From Acaryochloris thomasi RCC1774 (GTDB lineage: Bacteria > Cyanobacteriota > Cyanobacteriia > Thermosynechococcales > Thermosynechococcaceae), in contig NZ_PQWO01000009.1 of NCBI RefSeq assembly GCF_003231495.1, forward strand, positions 183,314 to 215,313: a stretch of 32,000 nucleotides of DNA, written 5' to 3'. The notes below the pieces were generated by a model. That model made no database searches, was not told the origin of the DNA, and saw only the letters and a list, made by a program, of their open reading frames with translations. Shown here in pieces: positions 1 to 26,680 of the stretch; position 1 is the first letter of the stretch; every line of letters starts with the position of its first letter. The translations under genes and the position numbers were made by a program.

Positions 1-1760
1 ACGCATTCGTACATCACGCCGCTGCGTAAGGTGCCCTGCTCCACCGCGTTAGCAATACTGCCGCAGCGACGAATGGCGTTAATCGCCTTGAGGTGATGAC
101 GGTGCCCGCCATGAACGGAGACGCCCCGCTTCATATCCATCCCCAGGGAGGTGCCCATCATGGATTGCTCGATGTCGTGAACGGCGATCGCATTTCCCCC
201 CAGAAGCGCATGAACATACCCCTCTCGAATCAGCCTGTTGAGATGCTCACTACCGCCGGTATGGATGACCACCGGCCCCGCCGTCACCACGACTTTGCCG
301 CCCTGATCTCGAATCCGGCGCAAGTCCCAGGCAATTTGTTCGACGACTAATTCCACGCGACGCTCACTGGAAACGCCAGCGCCCATGAAGCCAAATTCTT
401 CCGATGCGCCTTTTTTGAGCGTTGTCGCTGTGCGCTTGGTGCGAATGCCCTCACTGCCGACCACAACTGATTCGCCGACCTGTAAATCTCTCAGTAGCTT
501 GCAGCGGGCAGCGATACCACTGTTAGTTTGAGTGATTGCGATCGCACCATCCATCCGCTGACCTTGAACCCTGATCCATTGCCCCTCGATCAAGACTTCG
601 GTGGGATAGATCGCCGTCACATAGAAATCATCCGGCGCAACGCCCGCCTGAACAACGGCCTCTAGCTCAGCATCAACCGCTTCTTCCGTGACGCTCACCG
701 CACCGAGGTCCACTAACTGCCCCATAATGTCGGCAATGACGTCCGTATCCGGGGCTGAAACCTTGACTTCTGCAGTCGAAATATCCTGACGCTGTTCGCC
801 CAGATCAAAATTTAGAACCTGGAAACTGCCGCCCCCCGCCACAATCGTATCCAGCGCTCGATTGACTAGACCCGTATCGAGTAAATGGCCTTCAAGATGA
901 ACAATACGACTTTGAATCGTGGAAGCCTGGGGCGAAGCGTGGCGCGGCTCTGTGGTCCTTAGAGTCAGACATTTGGCAGCCCCACCCGCCTTCAGAAATT
1001 CTGTGAGGGGCGTTTCAACCACGGTAAAGCCACAATCGCCGAGGCTTTGCTTGAGGCGATCGCTAACGTGGTTCATCACCACCACGCGATCAATATTTAC
1101 GGCGTTACAGGCAAAGGTAACGGCATCTACCTCCTCAACCGCAATTCGCTTCTCAGCCGGGACACGCCGCTCAATCAAGTGATTGGAGTAGGTGTCAAAA
1201 GCTGGCGGATAGTAGAGCAGATACCCGTCCGTAAGCGGACAAAAGCAGGTATCTAGGTGGTAGAAGCGCCGGTCGACTAACCGCAGGGACAGCACTTCTA
1301 CATCTAACCACTGGGCCAAATAAGGGTGGGAGTCCAGTTCAGAGCGAAACCCGTAGCCCGCCCATAGCCAGCCTCCGGCCCGATCGAGCAGCGCATCTCC
1401 GGCTCCTTCAAAGGGCAGGCTTTTGGGCAACGTATGCACGGTGTAGCCCTGATCTGTAAACCACTGTTGGAAATAGGGTTCTTCACCCTGCCGTTCAGGA
1501 TGGAAAAAACGACTGAGCACGACGGTGTTGTCTAGAACCAGCCCTGCATTAGCGGTAAAAACCATATCTGGCCACCCCGGTTGAGGCTCCACTAGATCAA
1601 CCGTCGCGTAGGTTTTCAAGACCCGATGCAGCTCATCCCACTGCAGTTCAGCACGGTCCCGCGACGAACGATGGATATTGCCCTCCATCCAAGGGTTGAT
1701 CACGTAATCGACATCATAATGATGCGGGGCACACATCAAAATTCGTACTGAATCGGTCAT
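1..1760 (-). CDS. argZ: Bifunctional arginine dihydrolase / ornithine cyclodeaminase (ArgZ/AgrE family), first ~586 codons; the 3' end lies beyond the left window edge
   Basis: Absent from the ORF track because it runs off the window. A reverse-strand ATG at 1760-1758 opens an uninterrupted frame to position 1. The N-terminus (MTDSVRILMCAPHHYDVDYVINPWMEG...MVFTANAGLV...FLKAGGAAKCLTL) matches the guanidino-group-modifying (amidinotransferase/DDAH-like) fold with a C-terminal catalytic Cys. It is followed by a LOR/SDH-like domain (HLEGHLLDTGLVNRALD...KVVVTAGPVVIHTGG...). Confidence 0.8.
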   Translation of the reverse strand, partial: MTDSVRILMCAPHHYDVDYVINPWMEGNIHRSSRDRAELQWDELHRVLKTYATVDLVEPQPGWPDMVFTANAGLVLDNTVVLSRFFHPERQGEEPYFQQWFTDQGYTVHTLPKSLPFEGAGDALLDRAGGWLWAGYGFRSELDSHPYLAQWLDVEVLSLRLVDRRFYHLDTCFCPLTDGYLLYYPPAFDTYSNHLIERRVPAEKRIAVEEVDAVTFACNAVNIDRVVVMNHVSDRLKQSLGDCGFTVVETPLTEFLKAGGAAKCLTLRTTEPRHASPQASTIQSRIVHLEGHLLDTGLVNRALDTIVAGGGSFQVLNFDLGEQRQDISTAEVKVSAPDTDVIADIMGQLVDLGAVSVTEEAVDAELEAVVQAGVAPDDFYVTAIYPTEVLIEGQWIRVQGQRMDGAIAITQTNSGIAARCKLLRDLQVGESVVVGSEGIRTKRTATTLKKGASEEFGFMGAGVSSERRVELVVEQIAWDLRRIRDQGGKVVVTAGPVVIHTGGSEHLNRLIREGYVHALLGGNAIAVHDIEQSMMGTSLGMDMKRGVSVHGGHRHHLKAINAIRRCGSIANAVEQGTLRSGVMYEC

Positions 1761-4624: not shown

Positions 4625-5557
4625 ATGTCAAATTCTTATTCCTTGATGATTCATGGTGGTTCAGGTTCTTTGGAGGATCTGAAATACGAGGCAGGCGAAG
4701 CCGAGTTCAGGGAGAGCATCAACACAATTCTAGAGAAGGGCCGTCATCGCCTAGAACAAGGAGATAGCGCCCTAGATGTGGTGGAGTACTGCGTAACGCT
4801 TTTAGAGAATGATCGACTTTATAACGCAGGGCGAGGATCTGTTCTCAATGCCAAGGGAAAAGTAGAAATGGATGCCGCGATCATGAGCGGGAGAGATCTA
4901 GGGGCAGGGGCAGTAGCCTGCGTTGAGCAGGTTAAAAACCCGATCGCTGTGGCGCGTCGCGTGCTGGAGAAAGGAGAGCATGTCCTGCTGATGGGGTATG
5001 GAGCATTAGAATTTGCAAAATTGTGCCAGCTCGAAACCTGCCCTGAGGATTATTTCATTACTGAAAACCGGATTCAGCAGTTAGCAGAGGCACAGGCTGC
5101 AGGGCGAATTACGTTAGACCATGAGCGCGTCAAGCCACACTCCGAAAAACTAGGAACAGTGGGAGCTGTTGCCCGCGATCTGCAAGGTGATCTTGCAGCG
5201 GCAACTTCTACGGGGGGATTGGTGAACAATCACTGGGGCCGAGTCGGGGATACGCCAGTCGTTGGGGCGGGCGTATATGCCGACAACCAAAGCTGTGCAG
5301 TCTCGGCAACTGGCTATGGAGAGGAGTTCTTGCGCACGGTGTTAGCGAAAACAATTTCTGTGTTTGTTGAATTTAAGGGCATGGATGCTGAGGCGGCAGC
5401 GAAGGCCGGGGTTGATTATCTAGTCAGGCGCGTGCAGGGAGAGGGTGGAGTGATTGTTATTGATACTGCGGGGCGTTGTGCTGCAGCTCAGTCAACGTCG
5501 GGCCTGATTTGCGGCTGGATTGAGATGGGGGGAGAAGCACACTGCACCTTAGGTTAA
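4625..5557 (+). CDS. iaaA: Isoaspartyl peptidase / L-asparaginase (plant-type asparaginase, Ntn hydrolase); candidate beta-Asp-Arg dipeptidase
   Basis: 310-aa ORF with an autoprocessing/nucleophile site (HSEKLGTVGAVARD), plus YNAGRGSVLN and GDTPVVGAGVYAD motifs typical of the family. Confidence 0.9.
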   Translation: MSNSYSLMIHGGSGSLEDLKYEAGEAEFRESINTILEKGRHRLEQGDSALDVVEYCVTLLENDRLYNAGRGSVLNAKGKVEMDAAIMSGRDLGAGAVACVEQVKNPIAVARRVLEKGEHVLLMGYGALEFAKLCQLETCPEDYFITENRIQQLAEAQAAGRITLDHERVKPHSEKLGTVGAVARDLQGDLAAATSTGGLVNNHWGRVGDTPVVGAGVYADNQSCAVSATGYGEEFLRTVLAKTISVFVEFKGMDAEAAAKAGVDYLVRRVQGEGGVIVIDTAGRCAAAQSTSGLICGWIEMGGEAHCTLG

Positions 5558-7687: not shown

Positions 7688-7709
7688 AGTCTCTCTCCTC
7701 AATCAAAAT

Positions 7710-8441
7710 TTAGATTAGCAATAGCAAGCCGGTATAGAGCGCAATCCCACCGATAAAAGATCCGAAGCAGCTCTTCTTTTCGTCCGGCAATTCTCGCGCC
7801 AATATGTTGAGAATGAGGCTCCCGGCCAAAAAGGACCAGACAATCGAAACGGCTGCTTCATCAAAGCGAGTGGCTTGACCTGCGATCGCACCTACCATAA
7901 TTGCAGCTGTTAAGAGCCAGCGACCTAGTTTGTCATAGGGCTTTTTGTGGTGCTCCCGCAAGCTGTGATCAATGATGAAAAAGTGCAGAGCCACCGCGAT
8001 GAAATACAGAGCGCACTGCAGCAAGGTGTGGTCAGCGATATCTTGGAGCAGGTAACCGAAAATGATGTTCAGTACCGCAAAGGCTGAGATATGAATCCAA
8101 AATACAGCGGGGCTGGTAGTATCAACATCGTTTTCAAAGCGATTTTGCCGTCGAGAAGTGAGGGCCAGAATATCTAGGCCGTAAAACACAAGCAGTCCAA
8201 GGAGGGCCAAGATATAAACGTGATTTTCTAGGTAGGCCACGAAGGGCAAGGCGGAATGTTCTAGCTCTTCCTGGGCATGACTGAGTTCTGGAAAGATTTC
8301 TAGAAAGACATAGCCAATGGAAACGCCGCCGGCAAAGGACATCCAGCGATGTTCAGGGATAACGTTGACAACATTCAGTTTCGAGATGAAGGCATGCATC
8401 AACGCTAAGCCAATCGCTAAATAAAGACCGGGGCCTTCCAT
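7710..8441 (-). CDS. Polytopic membrane protein with His/Glu-rich motifs (possibly a ZIP-like metal transporter)
   Basis: 243-aa ORF with at least 6 hydrophobic helices and LHFFIIDHSLREHH and FPELSHAQEELEHS segments. It lies 22 nt upstream of the Rieske-ThDP gene on the same strand. The family assignment is tentative. Confidence 0.6.
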   Translation of the reverse strand: MEGPGLYLAIGLALMHAFISKLNVVNVIPEHRWMSFAGGVSIGYVFLEIFPELSHAQEELEHSALPFVAYLENHVYILALLGLLVFYGLDILALTSRRQNRFENDVDTTSPAVFWIHISAFAVLNIIFGYLLQDIADHTLLQCALYFIAVALHFFIIDHSLREHHKKPYDKLGRWLLTAAIMVGAIAGQATRFDEAAVSIVWSFLAGSLILNILARELPDEKKSCFGSFIGGIALYTGLLLLI

Positions 8442-8557
8442 GATGCATTGCCTCTAGATTTTGATCGGATGTTGATCGTGCTTTCACGAATTTACTGGAG
8501 AGTGTTGACGATTCAGCACTTTCCCCACAAGACTTATGCTCTGCAATCAACGAATTG

Positions 8558-12618: not shown

Positions 12619-15600
12619 CTAATTCTCAATCAACCGTTTTTGATAGTCTTGGACCGTCAGTTTCTGCTCAATATCGGCTCTGACCCGAACGACGCGCTTA
12701 TGAATCTTGCTCAGGCGATGGACAAAGCGAGTTTTCACGTCAGGATTGAGCTTCCTATTAGTGTAAACAGGTGTTCCATTTTTGAGATGAACATCAACGC
12801 CTCTGTTCGTCTGTTGAAAAATAAACACTTCGCCTTCAAATCGTCCGTTTTTACCCAGTATATTGATCACATCTTTCAGCGCAGGATCGAGAGTGTTGGA
12901 ATCAACTGATGGCACGGTTTTCTCAGGCTTCTCTCGGGCGATCGCACCTAATTCTCTGCCCATTTCGAAGGTCATCTTGGCTGCGATGCGAGTAAAGACA
13001 AATGAGATCGCAACTACTGTCCCTCCAATATCAAGAACCTGTTCAGCAACCTGCTTCGCAACGGGTGCTTTTTCTTTAGTCCAGCGCCTGATCTTGACCT
13101 CTTGCTGAGCCTCCCACGCTTTGATATCGTGCTGCTTAATAGCCTCAGACAACGCAGCCAATTCCTGACGTGCTCGTTCAGCCGTCTTCTCCGCCGCACT
13201 GACTTCAGACTGTATTGTCTCGATCTGAGTGCGGATCAGACTGCTCTTCTTCTGCTCCAAATTTGTTTGCGCTTCTGGAGAATCGAGTTCTTCAGACACA
13301 GCGAGAGCAGGAGCAACGGTCGTTCTTTCAGGCGCAGCAACAACTGCAGAGGCCTGGGAAATATAGTTCTGCAAAACAGTCTGTGGCTTAAGACCATTCT
13401 TGAATTGGACCCACAGATTCGTCGGATCATTTTGATCGGACAACTGTGAATCTTCTGTACTTAAGTCACTTTCAAGATCTAGATTTTCGTGAGCGATGGC
13501 AGATTCCTTTCTTTGTTGCTCCTTCTCAGAGACGATTTCAGTCCTAGACTCTGCATCTGATGCCCTCGGTTCTACCGCAAGAGAATCTGTGGCCGTGAAA
13601 GTCCCCCAGAATTTGAAGCCGTTGAGTTGTGTAGGCTTCTGCACTTGTACTAGGAGCTGTGGATTGGATGGGGCATACCGGAACGCTGGATACTCTTGAC
13701 ATAGCTCTCTAACTTGTTGCGCTGCCGACGCATCGCAAAGCAGCGGCAATGGCTCTTTAGACGTCGTTAGCACCACGTCTTTTAAGTTTATATATCGCTT
13801 AGGCACATTCGGCTGACTATCATCATCGAAAAAGTCCGCTGGCTCTGACGGTTTCTGATCGAAGCTGCGATAGGTCTGCAACGCTGCCCGGATCTGCTCT
13901 ACTGTTACTCCTTGCACATAAGCAGTCAGGCTTGCGGCTAAGGCAGAGGCAATGGCAGCCGGCGAACAGCCACGGACTGTCAGCGGCAGATGTGCAACTT
14001 TTTCAATCCGCTTTACTTCGTCTTGCTGCAGAATCGAGAGGTAGCCCTGTTCATAGACGGCAGCGATTCCACCCTGCTGGAGATGAGATCGCAACACCAA
14101 ATTCTCAGGATCCATCGAGAAGTAGGCAACCTGGCCCTGAACCTGCTCCGCCATCGTGACAACCCGCTCGTCATCAGCATTCAGCACAGCATAGCCATCT
14201 GCATGGACAGCGCCAGAAATCACAGATAGCGCTCTCGCCCTGTGGTCAAGCGTACAGGGACTTTGATCCGATGGCACATTCAGGACCACCCCCACATCAC
14301 AGTGCGAGAAGCCTAGCCCCGATCGCAAAATGCTGCTGTGGGAAGTCTCCAAAACAGCCATATCCACCGTCGGATCTTGCAAAATTATCTGAGCGCTTTG
14401 AGCGTCGGTCGCACGGCCCTTTTTGACAGGATACTGACCAATAAAAGCACCATCTGCCGTTGTATAGCCCACAGAGTCCTTCACTTGACCTAAGATATGC
14501 GAGATCAGAGGCGTAGGCGTTTCTGAGCCCCCCGTTTCTGCCACCGCCACCACCGGAATCTGAGTCGGCGCGCCGGCTGGGAACAGCATGTCGAGAATTG
14601 GAGCTGCAACATTTCGGGCCACACCTTCGCTGGGGGCCATATGCATGCGCAGCCCAGGAGCCGCATTGACCTCCACAATCACGCCATCCACGTCTTTTAA
14701 CGGCTGGGTAATATCGGTCGTAATCACATCTATGCCAACAATATCGAGATCGATGATCCGTGAAGCCCGCTCTGCCAGCCACAGCGTATCTGGATGGATC
14801 TCATCAGTCCGGTCAATTGCAGTCCCGCCCGTACTCAGATTGGCATTTGCCCGCAGGTAGCAAATTTGGTCCGGCTGTAAAACGGTATCAAGGGTAAACC
14901 CTTGACGGCTCAGCATTTCATCGGTAGCGTTATCGAGCTTTATTTTAGTGAGCGGCGTATCGTGGCCTTCGCCCCGACGAGCATCTTTATTCTCTAGTTC
15001 AACCAAGTCAAAAATTGTGCTTTGGCCATTACCAACGATATGGGCAGGGACCCGCTCGGCTACCGCGACAACCTTGTGATTAACAACTAAAATTCGATGA
15101 TCTCGGCCCTGATAGAAATGCTCAACAATCACGCCATCAGAGATATCCTTAGCTCGGTCATAGGCAAACTCTGCCTGCCGCCAAGAGCGAATATCAATTG
15201 TGATCCCGCGACCTTGGTTCCCGTCTAGAGGCTTAACCACAATGGGATAGCCGCCCAGGTCATCAATGGCCTCTTCTAGATCGCGAAAGGCATAAATGAC
15301 CTTCCCTAATGGAACGGGAGCGCCCATGCTCGTCAAAATTTCTTTGGTTCTTTCCTTATCACAGGCCAGCTCCACACCCAGAACGTTGCTGTGAGATGTT
15401 AGCGCTGCCTGAATCCGCTTCTGATGCTTGCCGGAACCAAACTGAAACAGATCACAGGTCTCTAGGTGTGTCCAGGGAATGCCTCGGTTTTCTGCTTCTT
15501 GAATCAATGCCTCAGTACTTGCTCCCTGAGCGGCTTCACTCCGTAAATTTCTCAGATCATCTAGATCTATTTGTAGTTCAGATTTGGGATAAACGCCCTT

Positions 15601-16014
15601 ATCAAGGATACTTTGGCATAAACGCAGCGCAGCTCGGGTTGCATAGCGTCCGGCGTCTTCATTTTGGTACTCAATGGCAACCTGATAAGCGTCAGGAGAA
15701 GCTGTCTCGCAAGTACAGCCAAACGCCACTGGCATATCGGCCAATACCTGAAGTTCTAAAGCGACGTGCTTCAAAATATGCCCCATCATGGAGCCTTGTA
15801 GTTCCTGATCTAGAGATGCTCCTCGATATTCTGGGGCATAAAGTTTTTGTTTCAGGCTGGGTAAAGTCTGCGTGAGACCATCCAAAAAGCCTGGAAGAGT
15901 ATTAGAGGGACCATCGGAAACATCCTCCAAATCCAGCAGCACAACGATGAGCTTTGAGCAGCTAACGCTCCAATAGTTTGGACCTCGAAGCGTCTGAGTT
16001 TGAAGGATTTTCAT
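12619..16014 (-). CDS. Cyanophycin synthetase paralog: N and ATP-grasp domains retained, Mur-ligase-like M domain catalytically degenerate and truncated, fused to a ~410-aa uncharacterised C-terminal tail
   Basis: Start set at MKILQTQTLRGPNYWS (ATG 16014), the same N-terminus as cphA at 25484; the track ORF extends 39 codons further upstream. It is collinear with CphA to about residue 720. The P-loop reads VAETGGSETPTPL instead of VTGTNGKTTTTRL. Sequence after ...ALQTYRSFDQKP is unrelated to CphA. Confidence 0.85.
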   Translation of the reverse strand: MKILQTQTLRGPNYWSVSCSKLIVVLLDLEDVSDGPSNTLPGFLDGLTQTLPSLKQKLYAPEYRGASLDQELQGSMMGHILKHVALELQVLADMPVAFGCTCETASPDAYQVAIEYQNEDAGRYATRAALRLCQSILDKGVYPKSELQIDLDDLRNLRSEAAQGASTEALIQEAENRGIPWTHLETCDLFQFGSGKHQKRIQAALTSHSNVLGVELACDKERTKEILTSMGAPVPLGKVIYAFRDLEEAIDDLGGYPIVVKPLDGNQGRGITIDIRSWRQAEFAYDRAKDISDGVIVEHFYQGRDHRILVVNHKVVAVAERVPAHIVGNGQSTIFDLVELENKDARRGEGHDTPLTKIKLDNATDEMLSRQGFTLDTVLQPDQICYLRANANLSTGGTAIDRTDEIHPDTLWLAERASRIIDLDIVGIDVITTDITQPLKDVDGVIVEVNAAPGLRMHMAPSEGVARNVAAPILDMLFPAGAPTQIPVVAVAETGGSETPTPLISHILGQVKDSVGYTTADGAFIGQYPVKKGRATDAQSAQIILQDPTVDMAVLETSHSSILRSGLGFSHCDVGVVLNVPSDQSPCTLDHRARALSVISGAVHADGYAVLNADDERVVTMAEQVQGQVAYFSMDPENLVLRSHLQQGGIAAVYEQGYLSILQQDEVKRIEKVAHLPLTVRGCSPAAIASALAASLTAYVQGVTVEQIRAALQTYRSFDQKPSEPADFFDDDSQPNVPKRYINLKDVVLTTSKEPLPLLCDASAAQQVRELCQEYPAFRYAPSNPQLLVQVQKPTQLNGFKFWGTFTATDSLAVEPRASDAESRTEIVSEKEQQRKESAIAHENLDLESDLSTEDSQLSDQNDPTNLWVQFKNGLKPQTVLQNYISQASAVVAAPERTTVAPALAVSEELDSPEAQTNLEQKKSSLIRTQIETIQSEVSAAEKTAERARQELAALSEAIKQHDIKAWEAQQEVKIRRWTKEKAPVAKQVAEQVLDIGGTVVAISFVFTRIAAKMTFEMGRELGAIAREKPEKTVPSVDSNTLDPALKDVINILGKNGRFEGEVFIFQQTNRGVDVHLKNGTPVYTNRKLNPDVKTRFVHRLSKIHKRVVRVRADIEQKLTVQDYQKRLIEN

Positions 16015-16144
16015 AGTGATAGATGAGTTTCTAATGATGCTACATAGGCCGTTCAAGCCTGGGCTTTGATAAACCGACAGGACTTCAATATAGGCTGAAA
16101 GATTTGAACCCTGAAGTTCACCGGGATACAAAACTCAACAATTA

Positions 16145-16160
16145 TGTCGTTTTTATGACA
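16145..16160 (-). promoter_or_regulatory. Dyad-symmetric box TGTC-N8-GACA (CRP/NtcA-family geometry) upstream of the cphA paralog
   Basis: The plus strand reads TGTCGTTTTTATGACA. The GT-N10-AC core (16146-16159) starts 132 nt from the ATG at 16014. This is the same offset as the GTA-N8-TAC box upstream of cphA. Confidence 0.35.
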
Positions 16161-16267
16161 TCTTTATGAGTGATTGCTGCTGTTTGCGATCGCAAATGAG
16201 ACTAACCCTGAACGAAGCGAACAAAACCGGGAAAGGCTCCAAACTCATTTCAGATCAGTGAAGCTAT

Positions 16268-19200
16268 CTACTCTATGCCCTCAATCGGAGCAAAGCCCTG
16301 TCGCTGAATATTCTCTGTAACAGTACGGGGATCAAGAAACTGTAGTAAATAATCTGGCCCCCCAGCTTTAGAGCCAACCCCTGAAAGCTTATATCCCCCA
16401 AAGGGTTGCCGAGCGACGATCGCACCTGTAATGCTGCGATTGATGTATAAATTCCCTACTTCAAACTCCGTTTTGGCTTGTTCAATATGGGATGGGGTGC
16501 GAGAGTACAGTCCACCCGTGAGCGCGAAGTTCGTGTTGTTTGCGATCGCAACTCCCTCTTCAAAACTCTGCGCCTTAATCACTGACAGAACCGGACCAAA
16601 AATTTCTTCCTGAGCCAGCGAACTGTGCGGATCAACCTCAGTAAAAATCACTGGCCCCACAAAGTAACCCGTCTCAGGCGCAGGCAATTGCAAAGCCAGA
16701 TTAGCTTCCGTCTTACCCTTATCAATCGTTTCACGAATTCGCTGCTGGGCTGCTTCATCAATCACGGGGCCAACCTTGGTCCCCGGATCGGCGGCAATGC
16801 CAACATTCAGCGATTTTGTCGCTTCAACTAGCCGCGCCACAAACGCGTCGTAGACGGATGCTAGAACGACTACCCGAGAGCAAGCTGAACACTTTTGGCC
16901 GCTATAGCCAAAGGCGGAATACACAACTCCCTGGACCGCCTGGTCTAAATCAGCACTTTCATCAACGATTATGGCGTTTTTACCCCCCATTTCAGCTACC
17001 ACACGCTTCAAATGCCTTTGACCGGGCTGCAGAACAGCAGCGTTGGCGTAGATTTCGCACCCCACTTCTTGAGAACCCGTAAACACAATCATCTGGACTG
17101 CGGGATGTTTGACGAGGTGAGCGCCTACGGTGGAACCGCTACCTGGAACGTATTGAAATACCCCTTTAGGTATCCCGGCTTCCACAAGAATTTCGCTAAG
17201 TTTAGCCGCGATCACAGAGGTTACAGCGGCAGGCTTTAGCAAAACACAGTTTCCGGTGACTAGGGCCGCAACCGTCATCCCTGTAGGGATCGCAAGCGGA
17301 AAGTTCCAGGGGGAAATCACCAGCACAATGCCCTTGGGACGGTAGAAGTAGCGATCGCTCTCCCCGGCCACATCGTAGATAATCTTAGGATCCAAACGCT
17401 CCATCTCTGCTGCGTAGTATCGACAGAAATCTACAGCCTCTGAGACTTCTACATCGGCTTGCTGGAGAGGCTTGCCTGCTTCAAACACCATCCAGGCATT
17501 GAGTTCATGACGACGCGCTTCAAGTAGATTTGCGGCCCGTCGCAGGATGTCGGCCCGCTCTTTCGCTGATGTGCGTTTCCAAGTTTGGAAAGCGGCTTTT
17601 GCGGCTGCGATCGCATCCTCTGCCTGAGCAATATTAATCTGCCCGACAGTCCCCACAATTTCTGTCGGATTAGATGGATTAACGGATTGAACCTTCTTCT
17701 CTGTCTGCACCCGTTCTCCATCAATTAGCGGCCAATATTGTTGACCTAACTGTTGTTTGACGGCAGTGAGGGCAGATTCGGCTTGGGTTCGGTGGGTTGC
17801 GATCGCAAAATTAGTATCTGCAGAAGGATCAATCTGAGTCGCGGTCGTCGTCACGGGCATAGGCGTCGGTTCCACTTCGCTACCGTCCTGATCGCCCTCT
17901 CTCCACTGAGGCGCTGCTAACAGTTCTTCAATCGGAGTCTCGGTTAAACTTTGCCGCAGAAAAGAGCTATTGGCAGTGTTCTCTAGCAATCGTCGAATCA
18001 GATAGGCCATCCCTGGAATCAAAGCGCCGTAGGGACAGTAGACTCGTACTCGATGCCCCTGTTTTGCTAACGCTGCTGCTAGGTTGTCGGCCATACCGTA
18101 CAAGACTTGAAATTCAATGTGTCGCTGCGGAATATTGAGGGTTTGAGCAATTGAGATCGCATGGGCCTGAGACCGAACATTGTGGCTACCGATGGCGGCG
18201 TACAGATGCTCATGATTTTCTAAGAGCAACTGTGTCATGCGCTCAAAATTGGCGTCCGTGGAAGACTTGTGATTATAGACGGGCGTGGGCCAATGATTCT
18301 GGCGAGCAATGATGGTCTCTTGATCCCAGTAGGCTCCTTTGATCAGCCGCACCGTGATCGGTTTGCCCCGCTGTTTCGCCCATTCAATCAGATCCTTCAA
18401 ATCACCGTAGCTATCCCGGAGATAGGCTTGGAGTGTGATGCCGATGTTGTTGCGATCGCAAAACTCTTCCTCCATTAACAAAGACTTTAACGTCGCTAGC
18501 GTGGCATCTTTATAGCGGTACTGTTCCATATCAAAATGAACATCGGCACCCACTTCCTGCGCTCGACGGAGGAGAATGCGGATGCGATCGCACACCGTTG
18601 TCTGAGACCCCTCTACATCTAACGGATCAAACTGAGAGTAAAACGCTGTCAACTTTAACGTCACCTGGACCTTAGCTAAATCATCCCCGTCAGCAGCGTC
18701 AATCTGGGGTACCGAAGACCACCGCCGAGAAACCTCTGTAAGCTGTCCCATTAACGCTAGATATTGATCGAGATAAGACTGAGCTTCTTTTTCCGTGATC
18801 ACTGCCTCGCCTAAAACATCGATAGCGAAGGTCATCGATTGTTTACGGAGACGATTAATGGTCTTGAGAACCTGCTTCAGCGTTTCGCCTGCGATATATT
18901 TTTGTGCCAGGGTTGCAACTGAGGTGGACAGAGTCGTCGCCGCAACTTGTCCCGGTATTGAATCGGAAGCCGTGAAGTTAAGCAGCCGTTTCAACGCTTC
19001 CGGTAGTTCTACATCAGGAACGCTCAGATACTCCTGAAGATGACGGGCCATTTCAGCTTTGGTGGTCAAAGACGGCAAACAATCGATCAGACGAAAGAGC
19101 TGCACCCGCAAACTGGGGTTGTCCATTGTCCAATTGAGCAGCTTATCGTCCCACCGGAATTGGTCTTGTATTTTAGCGAGGAGCGATCGCTTTTCTGCGG

Positions 19201-19291
19201 TCTGCGCCAACAGCTCCCGCGCAATGGCCTGGGTCTTTTCTTCATAGAGAGGCGGAGTCGTAAGTTCAGAACGAGACGGATTCACAGTCAT
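16268..19291 (-). CDS. putA: Bifunctional proline dehydrogenase / L-glutamate-gamma-semialdehyde (P5C) dehydrogenase PutA
   Basis: The ~1007-aa ORF has a PRODH barrel region (AIGSHNVRS...EFQVLYGMAD...AYLIRRLLENTANSSF). It also has an ALDH domain (FTGSQEVG, EMGGKNAIIVD, catalytic GQKCSACSR). I prefer the ATG at 19291 (MTVNPSR...) over the TTG at 19312 used in the track. Confidence 0.9.
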   Translation of the reverse strand: MTVNPSRSELTTPPLYEEKTQAIARELLAQTAEKRSLLAKIQDQFRWDDKLLNWTMDNPSLRVQLFRLIDCLPSLTTKAEMARHLQEYLSVPDVELPEALKRLLNFTASDSIPGQVAATTLSTSVATLAQKYIAGETLKQVLKTINRLRKQSMTFAIDVLGEAVITEKEAQSYLDQYLALMGQLTEVSRRWSSVPQIDAADGDDLAKVQVTLKLTAFYSQFDPLDVEGSQTTVCDRIRILLRRAQEVGADVHFDMEQYRYKDATLATLKSLLMEEEFCDRNNIGITLQAYLRDSYGDLKDLIEWAKQRGKPITVRLIKGAYWDQETIIARQNHWPTPVYNHKSSTDANFERMTQLLLENHEHLYAAIGSHNVRSQAHAISIAQTLNIPQRHIEFQVLYGMADNLAAALAKQGHRVRVYCPYGALIPGMAYLIRRLLENTANSSFLRQSLTETPIEELLAAPQWREGDQDGSEVEPTPMPVTTTATQIDPSADTNFAIATHRTQAESALTAVKQQLGQQYWPLIDGERVQTEKKVQSVNPSNPTEIVGTVGQINIAQAEDAIAAAKAAFQTWKRTSAKERADILRRAANLLEARRHELNAWMVFEAGKPLQQADVEVSEAVDFCRYYAAEMERLDPKIIYDVAGESDRYFYRPKGIVLVISPWNFPLAIPTGMTVAALVTGNCVLLKPAAVTSVIAAKLSEILVEAGIPKGVFQYVPGSGSTVGAHLVKHPAVQMIVFTGSQEVGCEIYANAAVLQPGQRHLKRVVAEMGGKNAIIVDESADLDQAVQGVVYSAFGYSGQKCSACSRVVVLASVYDAFVARLVEATKSLNVGIAADPGTKVGPVIDEAAQQRIRETIDKGKTEANLALQLPAPETGYFVGPVIFTEVDPHSSLAQEEIFGPVLSVIKAQSFEEGVAIANNTNFALTGGLYSRTPSHIEQAKTEFEVGNLYINRSITGAIVARQPFGGYKLSGVGSKAGGPDYLLQFLDPRTVTENIQRQGFAPIEGIE

Positions 19292-19440
19292 CAAACAACC
19301 TGCTTCATACAAACCTAGACAATCTTCGACAAACAGGTCGATATTTAATTGGTGTTTTAGAACTGGAGTGCCCCTCCAGCTTCATATCAATCTTAATAAC
19401 TGAAAAGGTATCCCGCACTCAGTCACGCCGTGTCTGCTGA

Positions 19441-20565
19441 TTAAATATCTAGGGGGCTACGAACGCTCAAAGTACCTTGATTGAGAACATGGGTATAAAT
19501 CATCGTGGTTTTTACGTCTTTGTGCCCTAATAAGTAGATAGGCTCAATTGACTTGAAGATTCCTGATTAATTTCAATATCGTTGCATTGGCCCTCACCCC
19601 CAGCCCCCCTCTCCCAATGTTGGGAGAGGGGGGCTGGGGGTGAGGGCCATGTAGAGCATTTGCTAATATCTGATCTTTAACTTGATTCTGCCTCGCCACT
19701 TAGCTCCTGAACGGTACGAATGTCATAGCCGTTTTGCCGCAAATGAGTCGCAAAGCTATGGCGAAGCGTGTGACAGCTTACTTTCTTAGCTATTTGAGCT
19801 TGGTGGGCTGCTTTCTTGAGCGAGTGCTGCAGAAAACCATCGCCTAAACGATGTCGCTGTTCTCTACCACTGCGAGGATCGGTGCTGCGCCGTTGAGCCG
19901 GAAAAACATATTGCCAAATCCATTCTTGTTCTGCGTTGGGATATTTGCGATCAAGGGCGTGGGGTAACGGTGCTATATCCTTGAGCTAGCTCATCTTGCT
20001 GCAGTTGCTTAACGTAGACGAGATGGGCCTGTAGGAGTTCAATGAGACTTTGTGGAAGAACGGTGATTCGGTCTTTATTACCTTTGGCATTCCGCACCAT
20101 CACTTGAGACTGACCAAAATCAAGATCTTTCACTCGCTAGGCGTAGCCCTTCTTTGACCCGCATCTCAGCTTAGCCAAGAGCTGTTGAATCCCCTCTAGT
20201 GCCTGCAATAAACGCTGAAACTCATCGGCCGTCAACACTGTAGGTAAATGCTTGGACTGTCTGGCCCGAACTACATCAATAGATTCGGCTAAAGGCTGTT
20301 TCAGTACCTGCCGATAGAGAACCAGCAAGGCACTGAGCGCTTGATTTTGGGTGGATGCTGCCACATCTCCGTTAACGGCTAAATGGGTGAAGAATGCCTT
20401 TACTTCGGCCTCGCCCATTTCTTGGGGATGCCGTTTATGGTGAAACAGAATAAAGCGCCGGATCCACCAAACATAAGTTTTTTCTGTGCGATGGGCATAG
20501 TGCTTGACTCGCAGTGCATCGCGCACCTGATCAAGCAGCTTTCTGGGCTTGGTGAGTTCTTCCAT
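19441..20565 (-). pseudogene. intI: Integron-type tyrosine recombinase (IntI family), disrupted by several frame lesions and a MITE insertion
   Basis: Pieces read on the minus strand are MEELTKPRKLLDQVRDALRVKHYAHRTEKTYVWWIRRFILFH..., [69 protein letters not shown]...[25 protein letters not shown] and [29 protein letters not shown]. The YP-A---W-WQYVFPA----DPRSG---RH segment is the IntI-specific insertion. Lesions are garbled box I with a stop at 20134-20136, a frameshift near 19966-19970, and the MITE at 19531-19702. Confidence 0.8.
19531..19702. mobile_element. MITE copy B: 168-bp element at 19533-19700 flanked by TA/TA, inserted in intI and inverted relative to copy A
   Basis: It has the same termini and flank-internal sequence as 4368-4597, in reverse complement. 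Its core at 19589-19648 is a perfect 29-bp-arm palindrome. Removing the element and one TA restores GAG CTA TTA GGG CAC (E-L-L-G-H) of the integrase. Confidence 0.8.
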
Positions 20566-20855
20566 ATGAGCTGGATAATAGCTATGGGAGGAAATTTATA
20601 TAGATGAATGCAGTCTAAATCGCTACCACTTCCTAGGCAAAAGCTTCTAAAACTCCTATGGAATGATGCATATAGCGATTTCAGGATTGGTTTCTATATT
20701 TAAACCTTACAAGATATGTATTCGTGAAGACTCAGGTGTTACTCTTCTACAAAAGCTGCCAAATTTAGACTTTAGCAGTTAATGACTCTAAATAAGCAAG
20801 CTTTTTAGTCCGCGAACTGCAGACTAAATATAGTCAGACCTTTGATATTGACATC

Positions 20856-21233
20856 ATGGATTTTGATAAATTTTCAATTAGTGAGTTTCAAAGGCGAGGT
20901 CTTAACAGTACTTCTTCTCGTAAGCTAGCAGATGAACTTGAGGAAGCTGCATTGCAAGAGATTCATAGTGTTCTAATGCCGACGATGAATAAAATCATTG
21001 ATGAGCTTAATAAACGTGGGCACCAACTGACATTTTATGAAGATCCGATACCAGGAGATATTTCATATAGACACAAAGATGGTGATGGAGAGATGGGGTT
21101 AAGAATTGCTGTTGACACTATCATTTCAACTGGATATTCTCACCTATATGACAACAATCAATCAGATGAAGAGATAATTGAAGAAGTGGTTGATAATTTA
21201 TGTAAGCTTATCGAGCCGACAGATCTAATTTGA
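20856..21233 (+). CDS. Hypothetical acidic protein (cassette-like ORF 1)
   Basis: 125-aa ORF with an ATG start, in an AT-rich segment. It points away from intI and has no motif I recognise. Confidence 0.5.
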   Translation: MDFDKFSISEFQRRGLNSTSSRKLADELEEAALQEIHSVLMPTMNKIIDELNKRGHQLTFYEDPIPGDISYRHKDGDGEMGLRIAVDTIISTGYSHLYDNNQSDEEIIEEVVDNLCKLIEPTDLI

Positions 21234-21277
21234 GAGTTTTTTTCGATTATCACAAAATCCATACTTTCTGAGCTATG

Positions 21278-21370
21278 GTTTAACTAGACCATACAGCGGG
21301 ACGCTCGAAATACCCTATTACTCAACGCTTTAAATTAATTCTCGCGCCCCTGATGGGGTAGCCGTTAGGC
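21278..21370 (+). other. attC-like recombination site (R'' GTTTAAC ... R' GTTAGGC)
   Basis: GTTTAAC (21278-21284) fits RYYYAAC and GTTAGGC (21364-21370) fits GTTRRRY. There is an imperfect internal stem with unpaired bases: CAGCGGGACGC at 21294-21304 pairs with GCGCCCCTG at 21343-21351. The next ORF starts 8 nt after R'. Confidence 0.4.
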
Positions 21371-21377
21371 ATATGCC

Positions 21378-21923
21378 ATGAATTTCGAAACGCAGATCGA
21401 AAAATGGGTTTCTGAGGACAGCTCAAGAATTCATGCTCTAGAGATAGCCTCCGAACTTAAACTCAACGATTGGTGTCTGGCTGCGGGGTTCGTAAGAAAC
21501 ATGGTTTGGGATAAACTCCATGATCGCCATTTCCCAACACCGCTCAATGACATCGATTTAATCTACTTCAATCGTGAAGAATCTTCGTTGGAAACCGACC
21601 AGGACTTGGAATCCATTCTTAAGACTAAATTGAACAAGCCTTGGTCTGTGAAAAACCAAGCGCGAATGCATCTAAGAAATAAAGATGCGTCATATACATC
21701 GACGGAAGATGCAATGAGTTATTGGGTTGAGGTGGAAACTGCAATTGGAGTCAGGTTAAGCCCTACGGACGGTCTGGAACTTGTTGCACCATTCGGACTT
21801 TCATCGCTGTTTTCAAGTACCGTTACCATTAACGATAAGCGCAGAAAGCCAAAAGAATTTTATGAGCGAGTCCGTTCAAAGAAGTGGCTGCAAACGTGGC
21901 CGAAGTTGAAAATATATGCCTAA
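21378..21923 (+). CDS. Nucleotidyltransferase-family protein (resembles the uncharacterised NTP_transf_6 type), cassette-like ORF 2
   Basis: 181-aa ORF. WCLAAGFVRNMVWDKLH...LNDIDLIYFN matches the GG-VRN-VWD ... DID-xYF pattern of that family, by eye. Confidence 0.6.
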   Translation: MNFETQIEKWVSEDSSRIHALEIASELKLNDWCLAAGFVRNMVWDKLHDRHFPTPLNDIDLIYFNREESSLETDQDLESILKTKLNKPWSVKNQARMHLRNKDASYTSTEDAMSYWVEVETAIGVRLSPTDGLELVAPFGLSSLFSSTVTINDKRRKPKEFYERVRSKKWLQTWPKLKIYA

Positions 21924-21968
21924 AAAGTCGCTGCAACGGACCCTTGCACGCTGAGCTAAGCGTTAGGC
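21918..21968 (+). other. attC-like recombination site (R'' GCCTAAA overlapping the stop codon ... R' GTTAGGC)
   Basis: GCCTAAA (21918-21924) is 6/7 complementary to GTTAGGC (21962-21968). The inner arms GTCGCTGCAA and TTGCACGCTGAG pair with bulged bases. At 51 nt it is slightly short for an attC. Confidence 0.45.
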
Positions 21969-22094
21969 TACTTTAATCGTCGGGAGGACAGTCTGAAAGC
22001 TAGTTATGGTGGAGCAGAGTCGGGTTATAGTGTGCGTTGAATATTTGCAGTCTAGCTACGTGTAAGCACTACATAGATCTTCAGAGGAGTTTTC

Positions 22095-22793: not shown

Positions 22794-25484
22794 TTAAGTC
22801 TTGATTCCATCCAGGCAGATATCTGCATTTTTAAAATCGGCTGATCGTGCCTCCTCTGGCTTTTCAACAATTGGATTTCGAGCCTTAATCAATGAGATTG
22901 TTCGACTAACATTATCAGGAAAAACAACGACAAGCGACTCTTTAGGGGCATTATCTAGTGCCCATATAATGGCCTCTGCTTCGTCTAGGCGAACAGAGTG
23001 GGAGGCTGCCGACTCAGCCCCGCCCTGACAGATGCCCTGAACAATTAGCTCTGCGGCATTACCGGGAGCGCGACCCCGCCCATCATCATCTTCTTTAACA
23101 ATAATCTGATCGAAGAACGTCGCCGAGAGTTTGCCGAGATCAATTAAATCTTGATCGCGGCGATCACCCGGTCCCCCGACCACGCCAATGGCAGGGCCAG
23201 TCCAGTTTTTGACAAAGCCCCCTACCGCTTTATATCCGGCTGGGTTATGGGCATAGTCCACCAGTACGTGAAATTGGCCGAGGTTGAAGAGATTCATACG
23301 TCCCGGCGTCTGCTGTTCTGAGGCTTTAAAACTGTGCAGAGCCGCCTGAATCTGCTTGACGGTCACGCCTTGGACATAGGCAGCTAGACTTGCCGCCAGA
23401 GCATTAGCAATCATGAACGGAGCCATTCCACCCAGCGTTACCGGAACTTGTTTAACGTGCTCAATACGGTGAACCTGATCCTGCTGCACAATGGTTAGGT
23501 AGCCTTGGTCGTAGACGGCAGCGATTCCACCCTGCTTGAGGTGCGATCGCAACACTTCATTTTCAGGATCCATCGAAAAATAGGCCACTTTTCCGGGCAC
23601 CTGCGCCGCCATTGCCGCGACTCGCGGATCATCAGCATTAAGAACAGCATAGCCATCGGGATGCACCGTCTCAGCGATCACTCCTTTGACCCTGGCCAAC
23701 TGATCAACGGTATTAATATCTCCTAGCCCCAAATGGTCCGCCGCCACGTTCAGAACGACTCCCACATCACACTGTGAAAAGGCCAAGCCCGAACGCAAAA
23801 TACCGCCCCGAGCTGTTTCAAGAACCGCAATATCCACCGTCGGATCCTGCAGAACCATTTGTGCACTCAGGGGGCCTGTGGTGTCTCCCTTCTCGACGAG
23901 GCGATCGCCGATATAGATGCCGTCGGTGGTCGTAAAGCCCACAGCATCATAAACCTGACGGCAAATATGGGCAATGAGTCGCGTGGTGGTGGTTTTGCCA
24001 TTGGTACCCGTCACCGCCACAATGGGCACCCGAGTCGGCGTCCCCGGCGGAAACAGCATCTTAATGATGGGTGCTGCCACATTACGAGCGCGGCCTTCAC
24101 TAGGTGCAATGTGCATCCGTAACCCGGGTGCTGCGTTAACCTCAACAATCACGCCATCTGCCTGGCTCAGGGGTTGAGTGATATCAGTTGTAATCACATC
24201 AATCCCTGCAATATCGAGGTCAATAATGCGAGATACCCGTTCCGCTAACCAAACAGTTTCTGGATGAATCTCATCGGTGCGGTCAATGGCAATGCCGCCC
24301 GTACTGAGGTTGGCTGTTGCGCGCAGGTAACCAATTTGATTGGGCTGCAAAACAGTGTCAACGGTGAACCCTTGACGGCTCAGCATGGCATCAGTGGCGT
24401 CGTCCAGTTGAATATGGGTGAGGATGTTGTCGTGCCCCGCGCCCCGACGATGATCTCGATTCTCTTGTTCAACAAGGGCTGCAATTGTGTCTTTACCATT
24501 GCCAACTACGTGAGCCGGGACGCGCTCTGCAACCGCGACAACTTTGTGGTTAACGACCAGAATGCGATGATCTCGGCCCTGATAGAAATGTTCGACAATC
24601 ACGCCTGTAGAAATATCCTTGGCTCGGTCGTAGGCAATTTCTACCTGTTCTTTTGACTGAATATCAATGGTGATCCCGCGACCGTGATTTCCATCTAAGG
24701 GCTTTATCACAATCGGATAGCCACCCAAGTCTTCAATCGCGTTATCTAATTCGCTAAAGGCATAAATCACTTTACCCAATGGAACCGGCGCACCCATACG
24801 CGTCAGAATTTCTTTAGTCCGTTCCTTATCGCAGGCTAATTCGACCCCCAAAACGTTGCTATGGGAGGTGAGTGCTGCCTGTAGTCGCTTTTGGTATTTG
24901 CCGTATCCAAGCTGATGGAGATCGCAATTCTCTAGCTCCATCCACGGGATATTGAGGGCTTCTGCCTCGCGGATCAGCGCCTCGGTGCTCGCCCCTAGGG
25001 CGGCTTCAGTACGCAGCTCAACCAAATCTTCTAAATCCGTTTGCAGTTCAGCTTCAGGGTAGGTGCCTGTTTCAGCCAAGCTCTTACATAAACGGTGGGC
25101 AGCTCGGGTGGCATAGCGACCGGCGGCTTCATTTTGATATTCAATTGCAACTTGATAAACGCCGGGGGTTACCGTCTCGCGGGTACGACCAAACCCCACC
25201 TCCATGCCCGCTAAAACCTGGAGTTCTAGCGCCACATGCTCTAGGATATGCCCCACCATGGTGCCTTCCTGGACCCGGCTGAGAAACCCACCCCGACACC
25301 CTGGCGAGCAGTGATGCTCTTCTAGGCTAGGTAAAACCGAGATTAATCCGTTGTAGAACCCTGGAATCGTATCAGACGGACGGTTAGCCAAGTCCTCCAG
25401 GTCCAGCCGAATGAGAATCAACTTTGCCCGACGAATACTCCAGTAGTTAGGGCCTCGAAGCGTTTGGGTTTGGAGAATTTTCAT
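22794..25484 (-). CDS. cphA: Cyanophycin synthetase (CphA1 type: N domain, ATP-grasp G domain, Mur-ligase-like M domain)
   Basis: 896-aa ORF starting MKILQTQTLRGPNYWS. The ATP-grasp region includes KPLDGNHGRGITI and VIVEVNAAPGLRMH. The Mur-ligase region has an intact P-loop (VTGTNGKTTTTRL), ETARGG, NVAADHLG and DYAHNPAG. Confidence 0.95.
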   Translation of the reverse strand: MKILQTQTLRGPNYWSIRRAKLILIRLDLEDLANRPSDTIPGFYNGLISVLPSLEEHHCSPGCRGGFLSRVQEGTMVGHILEHVALELQVLAGMEVGFGRTRETVTPGVYQVAIEYQNEAAGRYATRAAHRLCKSLAETGTYPEAELQTDLEDLVELRTEAALGASTEALIREAEALNIPWMELENCDLHQLGYGKYQKRLQAALTSHSNVLGVELACDKERTKEILTRMGAPVPLGKVIYAFSELDNAIEDLGGYPIVIKPLDGNHGRGITIDIQSKEQVEIAYDRAKDISTGVIVEHFYQGRDHRILVVNHKVVAVAERVPAHVVGNGKDTIAALVEQENRDHRRGAGHDNILTHIQLDDATDAMLSRQGFTVDTVLQPNQIGYLRATANLSTGGIAIDRTDEIHPETVWLAERVSRIIDLDIAGIDVITTDITQPLSQADGVIVEVNAAPGLRMHIAPSEGRARNVAAPIIKMLFPPGTPTRVPIVAVTGTNGKTTTTRLIAHICRQVYDAVGFTTTDGIYIGDRLVEKGDTTGPLSAQMVLQDPTVDIAVLETARGGILRSGLAFSQCDVGVVLNVAADHLGLGDINTVDQLARVKGVIAETVHPDGYAVLNADDPRVAAMAAQVPGKVAYFSMDPENEVLRSHLKQGGIAAVYDQGYLTIVQQDQVHRIEHVKQVPVTLGGMAPFMIANALAASLAAYVQGVTVKQIQAALHSFKASEQQTPGRMNLFNLGQFHVLVDYAHNPAGYKAVGGFVKNWTGPAIGVVGGPGDRRDQDLIDLGKLSATFFDQIIVKEDDDGRGRAPGNAAELIVQGICQGGAESAASHSVRLDEAEAIIWALDNAPKESLVVVFPDNVSRTISLIKARNPIVEKPEEARSADFKNADICLDGIKT

Positions 25485-25870: not shown

Positions 25871-26680
25871 CTAAGACGGCAAAACAGTCCGATGCTGATA
25901 GTGGTAGAGATCGCCCCGGTTTAGAATGTGCACGGTTAGATTGTGCAAACTGAGGGGAGACGTTTCGTCTGACTCTGGGTGATTCGTATAGGCCAATTCC
26001 CCTGGATCGATGACGGTGATCGACCCCTTACCCAATATTTCAAAGCTCCCATCCCCTCTGAAGGCAGCACAGGTATCTTCGTCAATGCCCATCCCTAGCT
26101 TCTCAGGATACGTTGCGATCGCACTGAGTAATCGAGCCATCCGATTGCGATTATGGAAGTGCTGATCCACCAACACTTCAGGAATAATTCCTAACCCATC
26201 CATCAAATCGACGAGTGAGCGGTTGGGAGATTCACCACTGCTGCCCCCCGAGATCATTTTTTCGCCCATAATGGCAGCGCCAGCGCTGGTTCCAGCAAGG
26301 ACAAGCGAGCCCAGATGAAGCCGCTTTCTGATAGCTGCAATAAATTTACTATCGTTGATGAAGTGGAAAAGACGAACCTGATCGCCACCTGTCACAAAGA
26401 CACCCGTACAGTCATCTAAGATATCGAGCCAGCGCAGCTCATCACACTCATGGGGTCGCCGAATATCAAGAACCTCAACCCGGTGCGCCCCCATTCTCTT
26501 GAAGATCTGGTAATAGCGATCGCCGACCGCACTGGGTTCTTGTGAAGCGCAGGGAATAATGCCGATGGTTGCTAGCTTTCCGCCTGCACTCTCGAAAAAG
26601 GCGGTTAATATACTGCACTCATTGACCTTATCTTCTGCTCCACCAATAACCATAATTGGGTACTGGGTCGGAATTACCAT
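25871..26680 (-). CDS. cphB: Cyanophycinase (peptidase S51)
   Basis: 269-aa ORF. It has IMVIGGAEDK, VFVTGGDQ, the nucleophile motif LAGTSAGAAIMG and VDQHFHNRNRMARL. It lies upstream of cphA on the same strand, the classic cphBA order. Confidence 0.9.
   Translation of the reverse strand: MVIPTQYPIMVIGGAEDKVNECSILTAFFESAGGKLATIGIIPCASQEPSAVGDRYYQIFKRMGAHRVEVLDIRRPHECDELRWLDILDDCTGVFVTGGDQVRLFHFINDSKFIAAIRKRLHLGSLVLAGTSAGAAIMGEKMISGGSSGESPNRSLVDLMDGLGIIPEVLVDQHFHNRNRMARLLSAIATYPEKLGMGIDEDTCAAFRGDGSFEILGKGSITVIDPGELAYTNHPESDETSPLSLHNLTVHILNRGDLYHYQHRTVLPS

Follow-up and report, generated by a model that had tools for sequence, protein, structure and literature searches.

A tailed, CphA1-derived protein of Acaryochloris thomasi as a candidate single-site cyanophycin polymerase

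Introduction

A 32,000-nt stretch of the genome of Acaryochloris thomasi RCC1774 (RefSeq contig NZ_PQWO01000009.1, positions 183,314 to 215,313; hereafter the window) carries two cyanophycin synthetase genes, and the second of them poses the question of which function is left to a protein that keeps the ATP-grasp half of such an enzyme but not its Mur-ligase active site. This gene (12619..16014, minus strand; 1131 amino acids plus stop codon) encodes a CphA1-derived paralog in which the lid (Mlid) of the M domain, which resembles a Mur ligase, is replaced by a tail of about 410 residues. Cyanophycin synthetases serve as models of template-independent polymerization and as production enzymes, and the searchable literature knows of just two types, CphA1 and CphA2. 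CphA2 works with its G domain only, has a truncated, inactive M domain and lacks the N-domain motif (PMC10273328, PMC9262961); which residues switch the substrate from Asp to β-Asp-Arg is stated as open in the CphA2 papers. For the paralog, we give about an even chance to the reading that it polymerizes cyanophycin with its G domain only, in the manner of CphA2 and with an origin separate from it, and that an exapted tail tethers or assembles it.

Results

Domain architecture of the paralog

The reading frame between 12619 and 16014 (minus strand) runs for 1131 codons without a stop and stays open farther upstream to a TTG at 16131; the start was placed at MKILQTQ because all CphA proteins start there. 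A full-length protein search returned an identical database entry, P0001, annotated as 'Cyanophycin synthetase [Acaryochloris thomasi RCC1774]', and the relatives bear the plain label 'cyanophycin synthetase'. The neighboring canonical cphA1 (22794..25484, minus strand; 896 amino acids) has all N-, G- and M-domain signatures and the Mlid. BLASTP aligned the two proteins with 513/734 identities (70%), and the likeness stopped at about residue 730. This fits an earlier note, made from the sequence alone, in which residues 1 to ~720 had been described as collinear with the neighboring CphA; the peptides quoted there were all present, as were the identical run of 26 nt and the HIP1 (highly iterated palindrome) site at 12938.

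Pfam detected all four domains in the neighboring CphA1 and the Cyanophycin_syn N domain and RimK ATP-grasp domain in the paralog, in which Mur_ligase_M scored 21.2 bits, below the 24-bit cutoff, and the Pfam scan gave no match to Mur_ligase_C (PF02875). The suspected replacement of the C-terminal third of CphA, namely the Mlid, is borne out by this missing domain and by the end of the likeness. In NCBIfam, the paralog remained under the cutoffs of TIGR02068 (841.8 versus 850; neighboring CphA1, 1209.6) and PRK14016 (871.6 versus 877), and its match spanned model positions 1-714 of 862.

All parts of the paralog lie on the minus strand. The N domain comprises residues 1-160 (15535..16014; Pfam Cyanophycin_syn), the ATP-grasp G domain residues 161-486 (14557..15534), and the Mcore residues 487-720 (13855..14556), with a fold that is predicted to be retained (predicted local distance difference test, pLDDT, 80-95). 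The tail begins with an acidic, Ser/Pro-rich linker predicted to be disordered (residues 721-920, 13255..13854; pLDDT 25-30), continues with a part made of long helices that includes the K-x-W motif region (residues 921-1030, 12925..13254), and ends in a predicted compact basic α/β domain (residues 1031-1131, 12622..12924; LGKNGRFEGEVFIFQQT..VDVHLKNGTPVY; pLDDT >90 in a tail-only model). In the AlphaFold layout, the disordered stretch covers residues 721-920, the long helices residues 920-992, and the α/β domain residues ~1035-1125; between the latter two lies the hydrophobic Gly-rich segment VLDIGGTVVAISFVFTRIA (residues 993-1011, 12982..13038; Kyte-Doolittle 19-residue mean of 1.7), whose character is kept across the tailed family described below. 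The full-length AlphaFold model had a low overall pLDDT of 56.6 and was used only for the pattern of confidence in Mcore, linker and C-terminal domain.

Loss and retention of active-site residues

Twenty-four functional positions from experiments with SuCphA1 and TeCphA1 (PMC9262961, PMC9427784) were mapped onto an alignment of 120 relatives, and all 24 were 100% conserved in the 97 canonical cyanobacterial CphA1. The M domain of CphA1 binds ATP and Mg2+ via the P-loop Lys/Thr, a Thr, a Glu, an Asp-His pair and an adenine-stacking Asn/Phe (PMC9427784, PMC9262961), and it is inactivated by D585A/H586A (PMC9262961). In the A. thomasi paralog six of these ligands are substituted (N495G, K497S, T498E, T520A, H584Q and F690A), and E556 and D583 alone are kept; the degenerate P-loop (14506..14550) reads VVAVAETGGSETPTPL in place of the canonical IVAVTGTNGKTTTTRL. 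The Mur-ligase active site can thus indeed be called erased, as the earlier note had it.

The Cx19HxxEH motif of the CphA1 N domain is the primer-generating zinc-peptidase site; it occurs in about 80% of CphA1, and E82Q alone inactivates the peptidase in SuCphA1 (PMC9262961). Its remnant in the paralog (residues 59-83, 15766..15840) carries C59Y, S60A, R70Q and E82K (HILKH). The catalytic Glu and the Cys ligand are gone, and C59Y together with E82K destroys the motif, which is what lies behind the divergent N-domain motif reported in the earlier note.

In the G domain, E215, K220, K261, R307, R321, N392, D429, E448, G454 and R456 are all kept. The paralog departs at two positions invariant in CphA1, with Gln for His267 of P-loop-G (codon 15214..15216) and Asn for Thr390 in the G-omega large loop (codon 14845..14847; RANANLSTGG versus RATANLSTGG), the loop by which the G domain binds the incoming substrate. 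Of the former view that both N and G domains look functional, what is borne out is that the ATP-grasp half is kept, with H267Q and T390N as exceptions; the N-domain zinc-peptidase site is lost.

Purifying selection on all segments

Selection was assessed against the closest ortholog, from the metagenome-assembled genome (MAG) P01_A01_bin.17 (L010), at unsaturated synonymous divergence (dS 0.36-0.54). The ratio of nonsynonymous to synonymous substitution rates (dN/dS) was 0.047 for the G domain, 0.115 for Mcore, 0.26 for the N domain and 0.26 for the whole tail. Inside the tail, dN/dS was 0.29 for the linker (residues 721-900) and 0.21 for the helical and hydrophobic part (residues 901-1030); the C-terminal domain gave 0.19 when compared with the relative at L001. 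Since these values are well below 1 in every segment, the paralog is a maintained, intact gene under purifying selection; a pseudogene, against which the earlier note had also argued, is ruled out. Constraint is strongest on the G domain, an argument for a functioning ATP-grasp site. Codon usage and third-position GC content (GC3) of the tail are host-like.

A family of tailed proteins with graded loss of active sites

The full-length search identified at least 22 tailed proteins of 971-1154 amino acids, which are without PF02875 and carry a homologous tail at the same junction. This junction lies directly after GxMNLFNL, the first Mlid strand, about 10 residues into the would-be Mlid. The proteins come from A. 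thomasi, 'Cyanobacteria bacterium P01_A01_bin.17', an Acaryochloridaceae MAG, a Thermosynechococcaceae MAG, a 'Thermosynechococcus sp. WC_1' MAG, a Kovacikia MAG (whose contig holds the tail end only) and metagenomes. A contig scan with A. thomasi-specific peptides gave no match; the profile of the conserved C-terminal domain of the tail later found five true loci. A literature search found no description of a tailed single-site cyanophycin synthetase architecture, and the family is undescribed in the searchable literature.

Phylogenies were computed by neighbor joining (NJ) with simple distances and without CphA2 sequences. The tailed family was monophyletic in 46/50 bootstraps for N+G+Mcore, 44/50 for Mcore, 8/50 for N alone and 0/50 for G alone; the shared tail and shared junction argue independently for a single origin. 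The family was nested within cyanobacterial CphA1 with three canonical CphA1 as sister, and the local A. thomasi CphA1 was not its sister. The A. thomasi clade (clade A; 50/50 bootstraps) was itself nested in a paraphyletic basal grade. On the NJ tree, tailed proteins evolved at about twice the rate of canonical CphA1.

These data also bear on the age of the paralog. Synonymous sites between paralog and local cphA1 are saturated (proportion of differences, pS, 0.70), and the 26-nt identical run (15095-15120 and 24565-24590) was reached in 257/5000 codon-column shuffles (p ~0.05). The underlying duplication is old, not recent, because synonymous sites are saturated, the identical run is only marginally unusual and the family is spread over several genera. 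A recent local duplication is ruled out by the saturation and by the position of the local CphA1, so that the derivation from the neighboring cphA assumed in the earlier note has to be given up in so far as it was thought recent. As evidence for gene conversion the identical run, though real, is marginal, and this explanation was rejected.

Active-site loss is graded within the family. The full N-domain motif (C59, H79, E82, H83) is kept in the basal members P0011 and P0037; in the basal grade E82 is kept in 14/14 and C59 in 12/14 proteins, with the zinc ligand H83 replaced in 9/14. The M-domain P-loop Lys is kept in 13/14 basal members, and T498 and/or H584 is lost in 10/14 (T498A in 9/14, H584Q/R in 11/14). 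His267 is present in 12/14. The A. thomasi clade is left with none of the M and N signatures, and H267Q and T390N are fixed in it. Across the tailed proteins every ATP, Mg2+ and substrate residue of the G domain is kept except for H267Q, which occurs in all of clade A and in two basal proteins, and T390N, which occurs in all of clade A.

Origin of the tail

Searches for known families and folds were negative: the tail and its stand-alone relatives gave nothing significant in Pfam, NCBIfam or PHROGs, the tail model had no Foldseek match in PDB or BFVD at E ≤ 0.001, and tblastn of the tail against plasmid sequences gave no match. A word-indexed protein search with the tail alone gave no match and one with a tail profile two proteins; both results were false negatives of the prefilter. 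The word-indexed search with the tail missed even its own full-length protein and every tailed relative, its 8000-candidate prefilter being probably saturated by low-complexity words, which makes its negatives on such sequences unreliable.

An exhaustive phmmer search returned 36 matches (best 1.6e-54). Those that are not fusions are stand-alone proteins of 337-869 amino acids with an N-terminal domain of their own; the remainder are fusion fragments. The tail of the basal member P0039 is collinear with residues 117-473 of the stand-alone protein P0128, up to its C-terminus (40% identity, E 6e-80), and the donor N-terminal domain (IVKEYGLENARIQVGRERIYP...) is absent from the fusion. At five loci the stand-alone genes are co-directional with genes for a TraG/VirD4 coupling protein, a small ORF (open reading frame) product and an AAA ATPase, and a TrwC relaxase-helicase of ~2100 amino acids is encoded nearby. 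Judged from this gene content, the loci are conjugative elements. Because the tail is collinear with proteins encoded in such elements, it is, on the sequence evidence, an exapted mobile-element protein of which all but the first ~115 residues are present. The tail described in the earlier note as having no recognizable domain thus matches no named domain and yet has homologs in conjugative elements; the survey suggested there for the tail elsewhere found stand-alone proteins as well as the same fusion.

Some further features of the donor loci were observed. In L006, L009, L019 and L020/L021 the order is TraG/VirD4, a ~111-aa ORF, the tail-donor protein (in some cases as a pair of paralogs) and a ~470-aa AAA ATPase, followed by a ~2100-aa TrwC/TraI relaxase with DUF3854. 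The neighbors of the donor gene in these clusters are mostly without Pfam match. Many donor proteins have a short basic C-terminus of the form ...xxR in common.

Genomic neighborhood

On the minus strand of the window the order is cphB, cphA1, an inserted stretch of ~3.5 kb, putA and the paralog. The cphB gene (25871..26680, minus strand) encodes a cyanophycinase of the Peptidase_S51 family, and putA (16268..19312, minus strand), for proline dehydrogenase/P5C (pyrroline-5-carboxylate) dehydrogenase, lies directly upstream of the paralog, a linkage kept in other genomes. Beyond the paralog follow the gene for an isoaspartyl dipeptidase/asparaginase (4625..5557, plus strand; Asparaginase_2), which takes cyanophycin breakdown through its second step, a transglutaminase-like gene, and an ArgZ/AgrE-type arginine dihydrolase homolog (3..1760, minus strand) that is cut by the window edge and has counterparts near the paralog in L001 and L005. 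The pathway that leads from cyanophycin through Arg and Pro to Glu is made up of CphB, isoaspartyl dipeptidase, ArgZ/AgrE and PutA.

The gene order paralog-cphB-cphA1-putA was found in L003/L013, L005 and L014, paralog-cphB-cphA1 in L004, and paralog-cphB in L012; putA-paralog with ArgZ nearby is the order in the window, L010 and L001. By its linkage to cphB, cphA1, putA and ArgZ/AgrE genes the paralog is embedded in cyanophycin turnover.

The 253-nt spacer between putA and the paralog (16015..16267, minus strand) is ~90% identical to the spacer at L010 690-936. It is better conserved than flanking synonymous sites (pS 0.28-0.38), carries a HIP1 site and is probably regulatory, as a conserved promoter or leader. 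The spacer had no Rfam match and folded no better than shuffles (z -1.26). No NtcA box was found upstream of the paralog, putA or cphB, and promoter and terminator counts were at chance level.

The sole RNA gene that Rfam found in the window is a tRNA-Gly(CCC) (26841-26913, minus strand), which shares the strand of cphB and lies ~160 nt upstream of it. The stretch 19313-22793 contains an integrase N-terminal SAM-like fragment (20137-20565, minus strand), NTP_transf_6 (21378-21923, plus strand) and a YycE-like glyoxalase (22095-22490, plus strand); it looks like an insertion that split the cphA1-putA cluster, because these two genes adjoin in related genomes. The transglutaminase-like gene occupies 2459-4171 (plus strand), and in L001 transglutaminase and ArgZ genes adjoin the paralog; the ~7 kb that lie between in the window (DM13, YHS, YjeF_N, GMC oxidoreductase, BacA-like, Rieske-TPP) could have been inserted later. 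Among these genes, a 655-aa ORF (5735-7702, minus strand) shows the unusual pairing of an N-terminal Rieske [2Fe-2S] domain with a complete three-domain thiamine pyrophosphate (TPP) enzyme resembling acetolactate synthase. At L001, the locus of the metagenomic relative P0003, putA is represented at 5513-8546 by two ORFs of 228 and 776 amino acids with overlapping homology, which suggests a frameshift or an assembly error, and a DUF433/DUF5615 toxin-antitoxin-like pair lies between the split putA and the paralog.

Discussion

Architecture, family, purifying selection, the pattern of site loss, the origin of the tail and synteny are observed here; from them we infer which substrate the paralog uses, that it catalyzes with Gln267 and what its tail does. 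The family would go back to a duplicated cyanobacterial cphA1, and its common ancestor would have exchanged the Mlid, a few residues after the start at GxMNLFNL, for a conjugative-element protein minus its first ~115 residues. Loss of the Mlid would have disabled arginine ligation, after which the ATP site of the M domain and the zinc-peptidase site of the N domain may have decayed stepwise, a process completed in the A. thomasi clade, with Mcore and N domain staying as a scaffold. Such a sequence of events, lid replacement first and then loss of the sites made useless, is the simplest history suggested by the data, because deletion of the Mlid strongly reduces TeCphA1 activity and site loss is graded among the relatives; both the ΔMlid variant of TeCphA1 and K499A are strongly impaired (PMC9427784).

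The G domain would then phosphorylate the C-terminus of a cyanophycin primer and add β-Asp-Arg dipeptides released by CphB, so that cyanophycin would be re-polymerized at the expense of one ATP per unit. In this reading the active site would have adapted to β-Asp-Arg polymerization by H267Q and T390N, and the tail, with its disordered linker of ~200 residues, helices, hydrophobic segment and basic α/β domain, would serve to place the enzyme, or to assemble it, at a membrane, granule or partner protein; this tethering is a guess. That the tailed proteins amount to a third, independently evolved class of cyanophycin synthetase, a single-site G-domain polymerase of Acaryochloridaceae/Thermosynechococcaceae with a conjugative-element tail as anchor and with surviving intermediates, we propose tentatively, at somewhat below even chances.

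Several findings weigh against this proposal of a CphA2-like polymerase. His267 is invariant in canonical CphA1, and H267A renders the G domain inactive in SuCphA1 (PMC9262961) and strongly reduces G-domain activity in TeCphA1; Gln may or may not replace His267 functionally. The likeness to CphA2 is one of architecture and of lost M and N sites. The monophyly signal comes from the faster-evolving N domain and Mcore, with no support from the G domain alone. The basal member P0011 still has what looks like a full ATP site in Mcore, together with the N motif, and given such members further activities may have persisted in the ancestor of the tailed enzymes. The gene for P0039 (L002) is not beside cph genes. 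As to the anchor, the hydrophobic segment is only borderline as a membrane helix, and the tail is without fold or family match.

Because His267 is critical in CphA1, the strongest alternative is that the protein is non-catalytic, a pseudoenzyme or scaffold, which we consider unlikely. Such a protein would bind ATP and cyanophycin through its G and N domains or co-assemble with CphA1 by way of the conserved Gcore and Mcore oligomer interfaces, and its tail would tether, nucleate or regulate granules or CphA1/CphB, with no polymerization of its own. The exchange of His267 sits exactly where the Ala mutant is inactive, the M and N active sites are both dead, and a catalytically useless Mcore that is still constrained fits a structural or interface role (Mcore and Gcore make the tetramer contacts of CphA1); linker, helices and hydrophobic segment resemble a tether, and the gene is tightly linked to cphB-cphA1. 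However, the ATP, Mg2+ and substrate ligands of the G domain are invariant apart from His267, and the strongest constraint of all on this domain is hard to explain without catalysis. His267 is moreover kept in most basal members, and Gln is a conservative, hydrogen-bonding replacement at a position that is taken by Tyr or Phe in other ATP-grasp enzymes.

An active G domain with a chemistry other than that of CphA2 seems improbable. It would add Asp only, with CphA1 adding Arg in trans, or would act on another substrate or polymer tied to putA/ArgZ. The Asp-binding residues N392, R456 and R321 are the same as in CphA1, so that Asp could remain the substrate, T390N and H267Q may signal a changed specificity, and the linkage to putA, ArgZ and cph genes is conserved. 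Yet CphA2 needs the same large-loop residues (R389/N393/S395 in StCphA2), so their conservation does not discriminate between substrates; CphA1 already adds Asp efficiently, which makes the gain from an Asp-only enzyme doubtful, and nothing in the data points to another substrate.

A decaying duplicate or an annotation or assembly chimera is very improbable: three usual catalytic signatures are degraded, ~200 residues of the tail are of low complexity and predicted disordered, and the tailed proteins have about double the evolutionary rate of canonical CphA1, but the 3.4-kb frame is open, independent assemblies contain at least 22 proteins of this architecture, junction and synteny have been maintained, codon usage is host-like and dN/dS is 0.05-0.29 in every segment including the tail.

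If the polymerase reading is true, CphA1 was turned into a G-only enzyme a second time, independently, in this family, which then offers, with H267Q and T390N, a natural replicate for the retuning from Asp to β-Asp-Arg. Living relatives would then preserve intermediates on the way from a three-active-site to a one-active-site enzyme, their graded losses showing which of the redundant active sites decay earlier and which later once the lid is gone. The tail is a clear case of a mobile-element protein recruited to core nitrogen-storage metabolism, and it could reveal both the cellular positioning of cyanophycin synthesis and the role of a widespread, uncharacterized conjugation protein.

Comparison with known systems

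The paralog shares with CphA1 (TIGR02068/PRK14016; structures 7LG5 and 7WAC) the collinear N-G-Mcore arrangement, with 66-72% identity to cyanobacterial CphA1, the G-domain catalytic and substrate residues other than His267 and Thr390, the linkage to cphB and a position inside cyanobacterial CphA1. It differs in the missing Mlid, the lost M-domain ATP/Mg2+ ligands and Cx19HxxEH motif, the H267Q and T390N exchanges, the foreign tail of ~410 residues, and scores just under both NCBIfam cutoffs.

With CphA2, the β-Asp-Arg polymerase, it has in common a truncated, inactive M domain without Mlid, the absence of the N peptidase motif and descent from CphA1. In contrast, CphA2 has ~630-640 amino acids and no tail, and its P-loop-G region aligns poorly with the paralog (17 and 14 bits). 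In phmmer comparisons the paralog scored 889 and 879 bits against cyanobacterial CphA1 structures and 251 (7TA5) and 226 (8FXH) bits against CphA2. Membership in CphA2 is ruled out by these scores and by the nesting in the CphA1 tree (which contained no CphA2), and the CphA2-like design of separate origin put forward in the earlier note is upheld by them. A tblastn search of plasmid sequences with the G domain, made in search of CphA2, returned only proteobacterial and Deinococcus CphA and GshAB.

The tail corresponds to conjugative-element proteins such as P0128, P0131, P0143 and P0155, with which it is collinear from their residue ~117 to the C-terminus. Shared elements are the FDLLKQ..AQGS module, the LELAQKNL..KxW helices, the KEQAPV helix and the C-terminal GKDGRFEG..LKDGTPVY α/β domain. 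Unlike these proteins, the fusion is without their N-terminal domain of ~100 residues and, in the A. thomasi clade, also without the basic C-terminal end of the ...GRGFSR type, and it is encoded in a chromosomal cyanophycin/arginine neighborhood and not in a type IV secretion system (T4SS) cluster.

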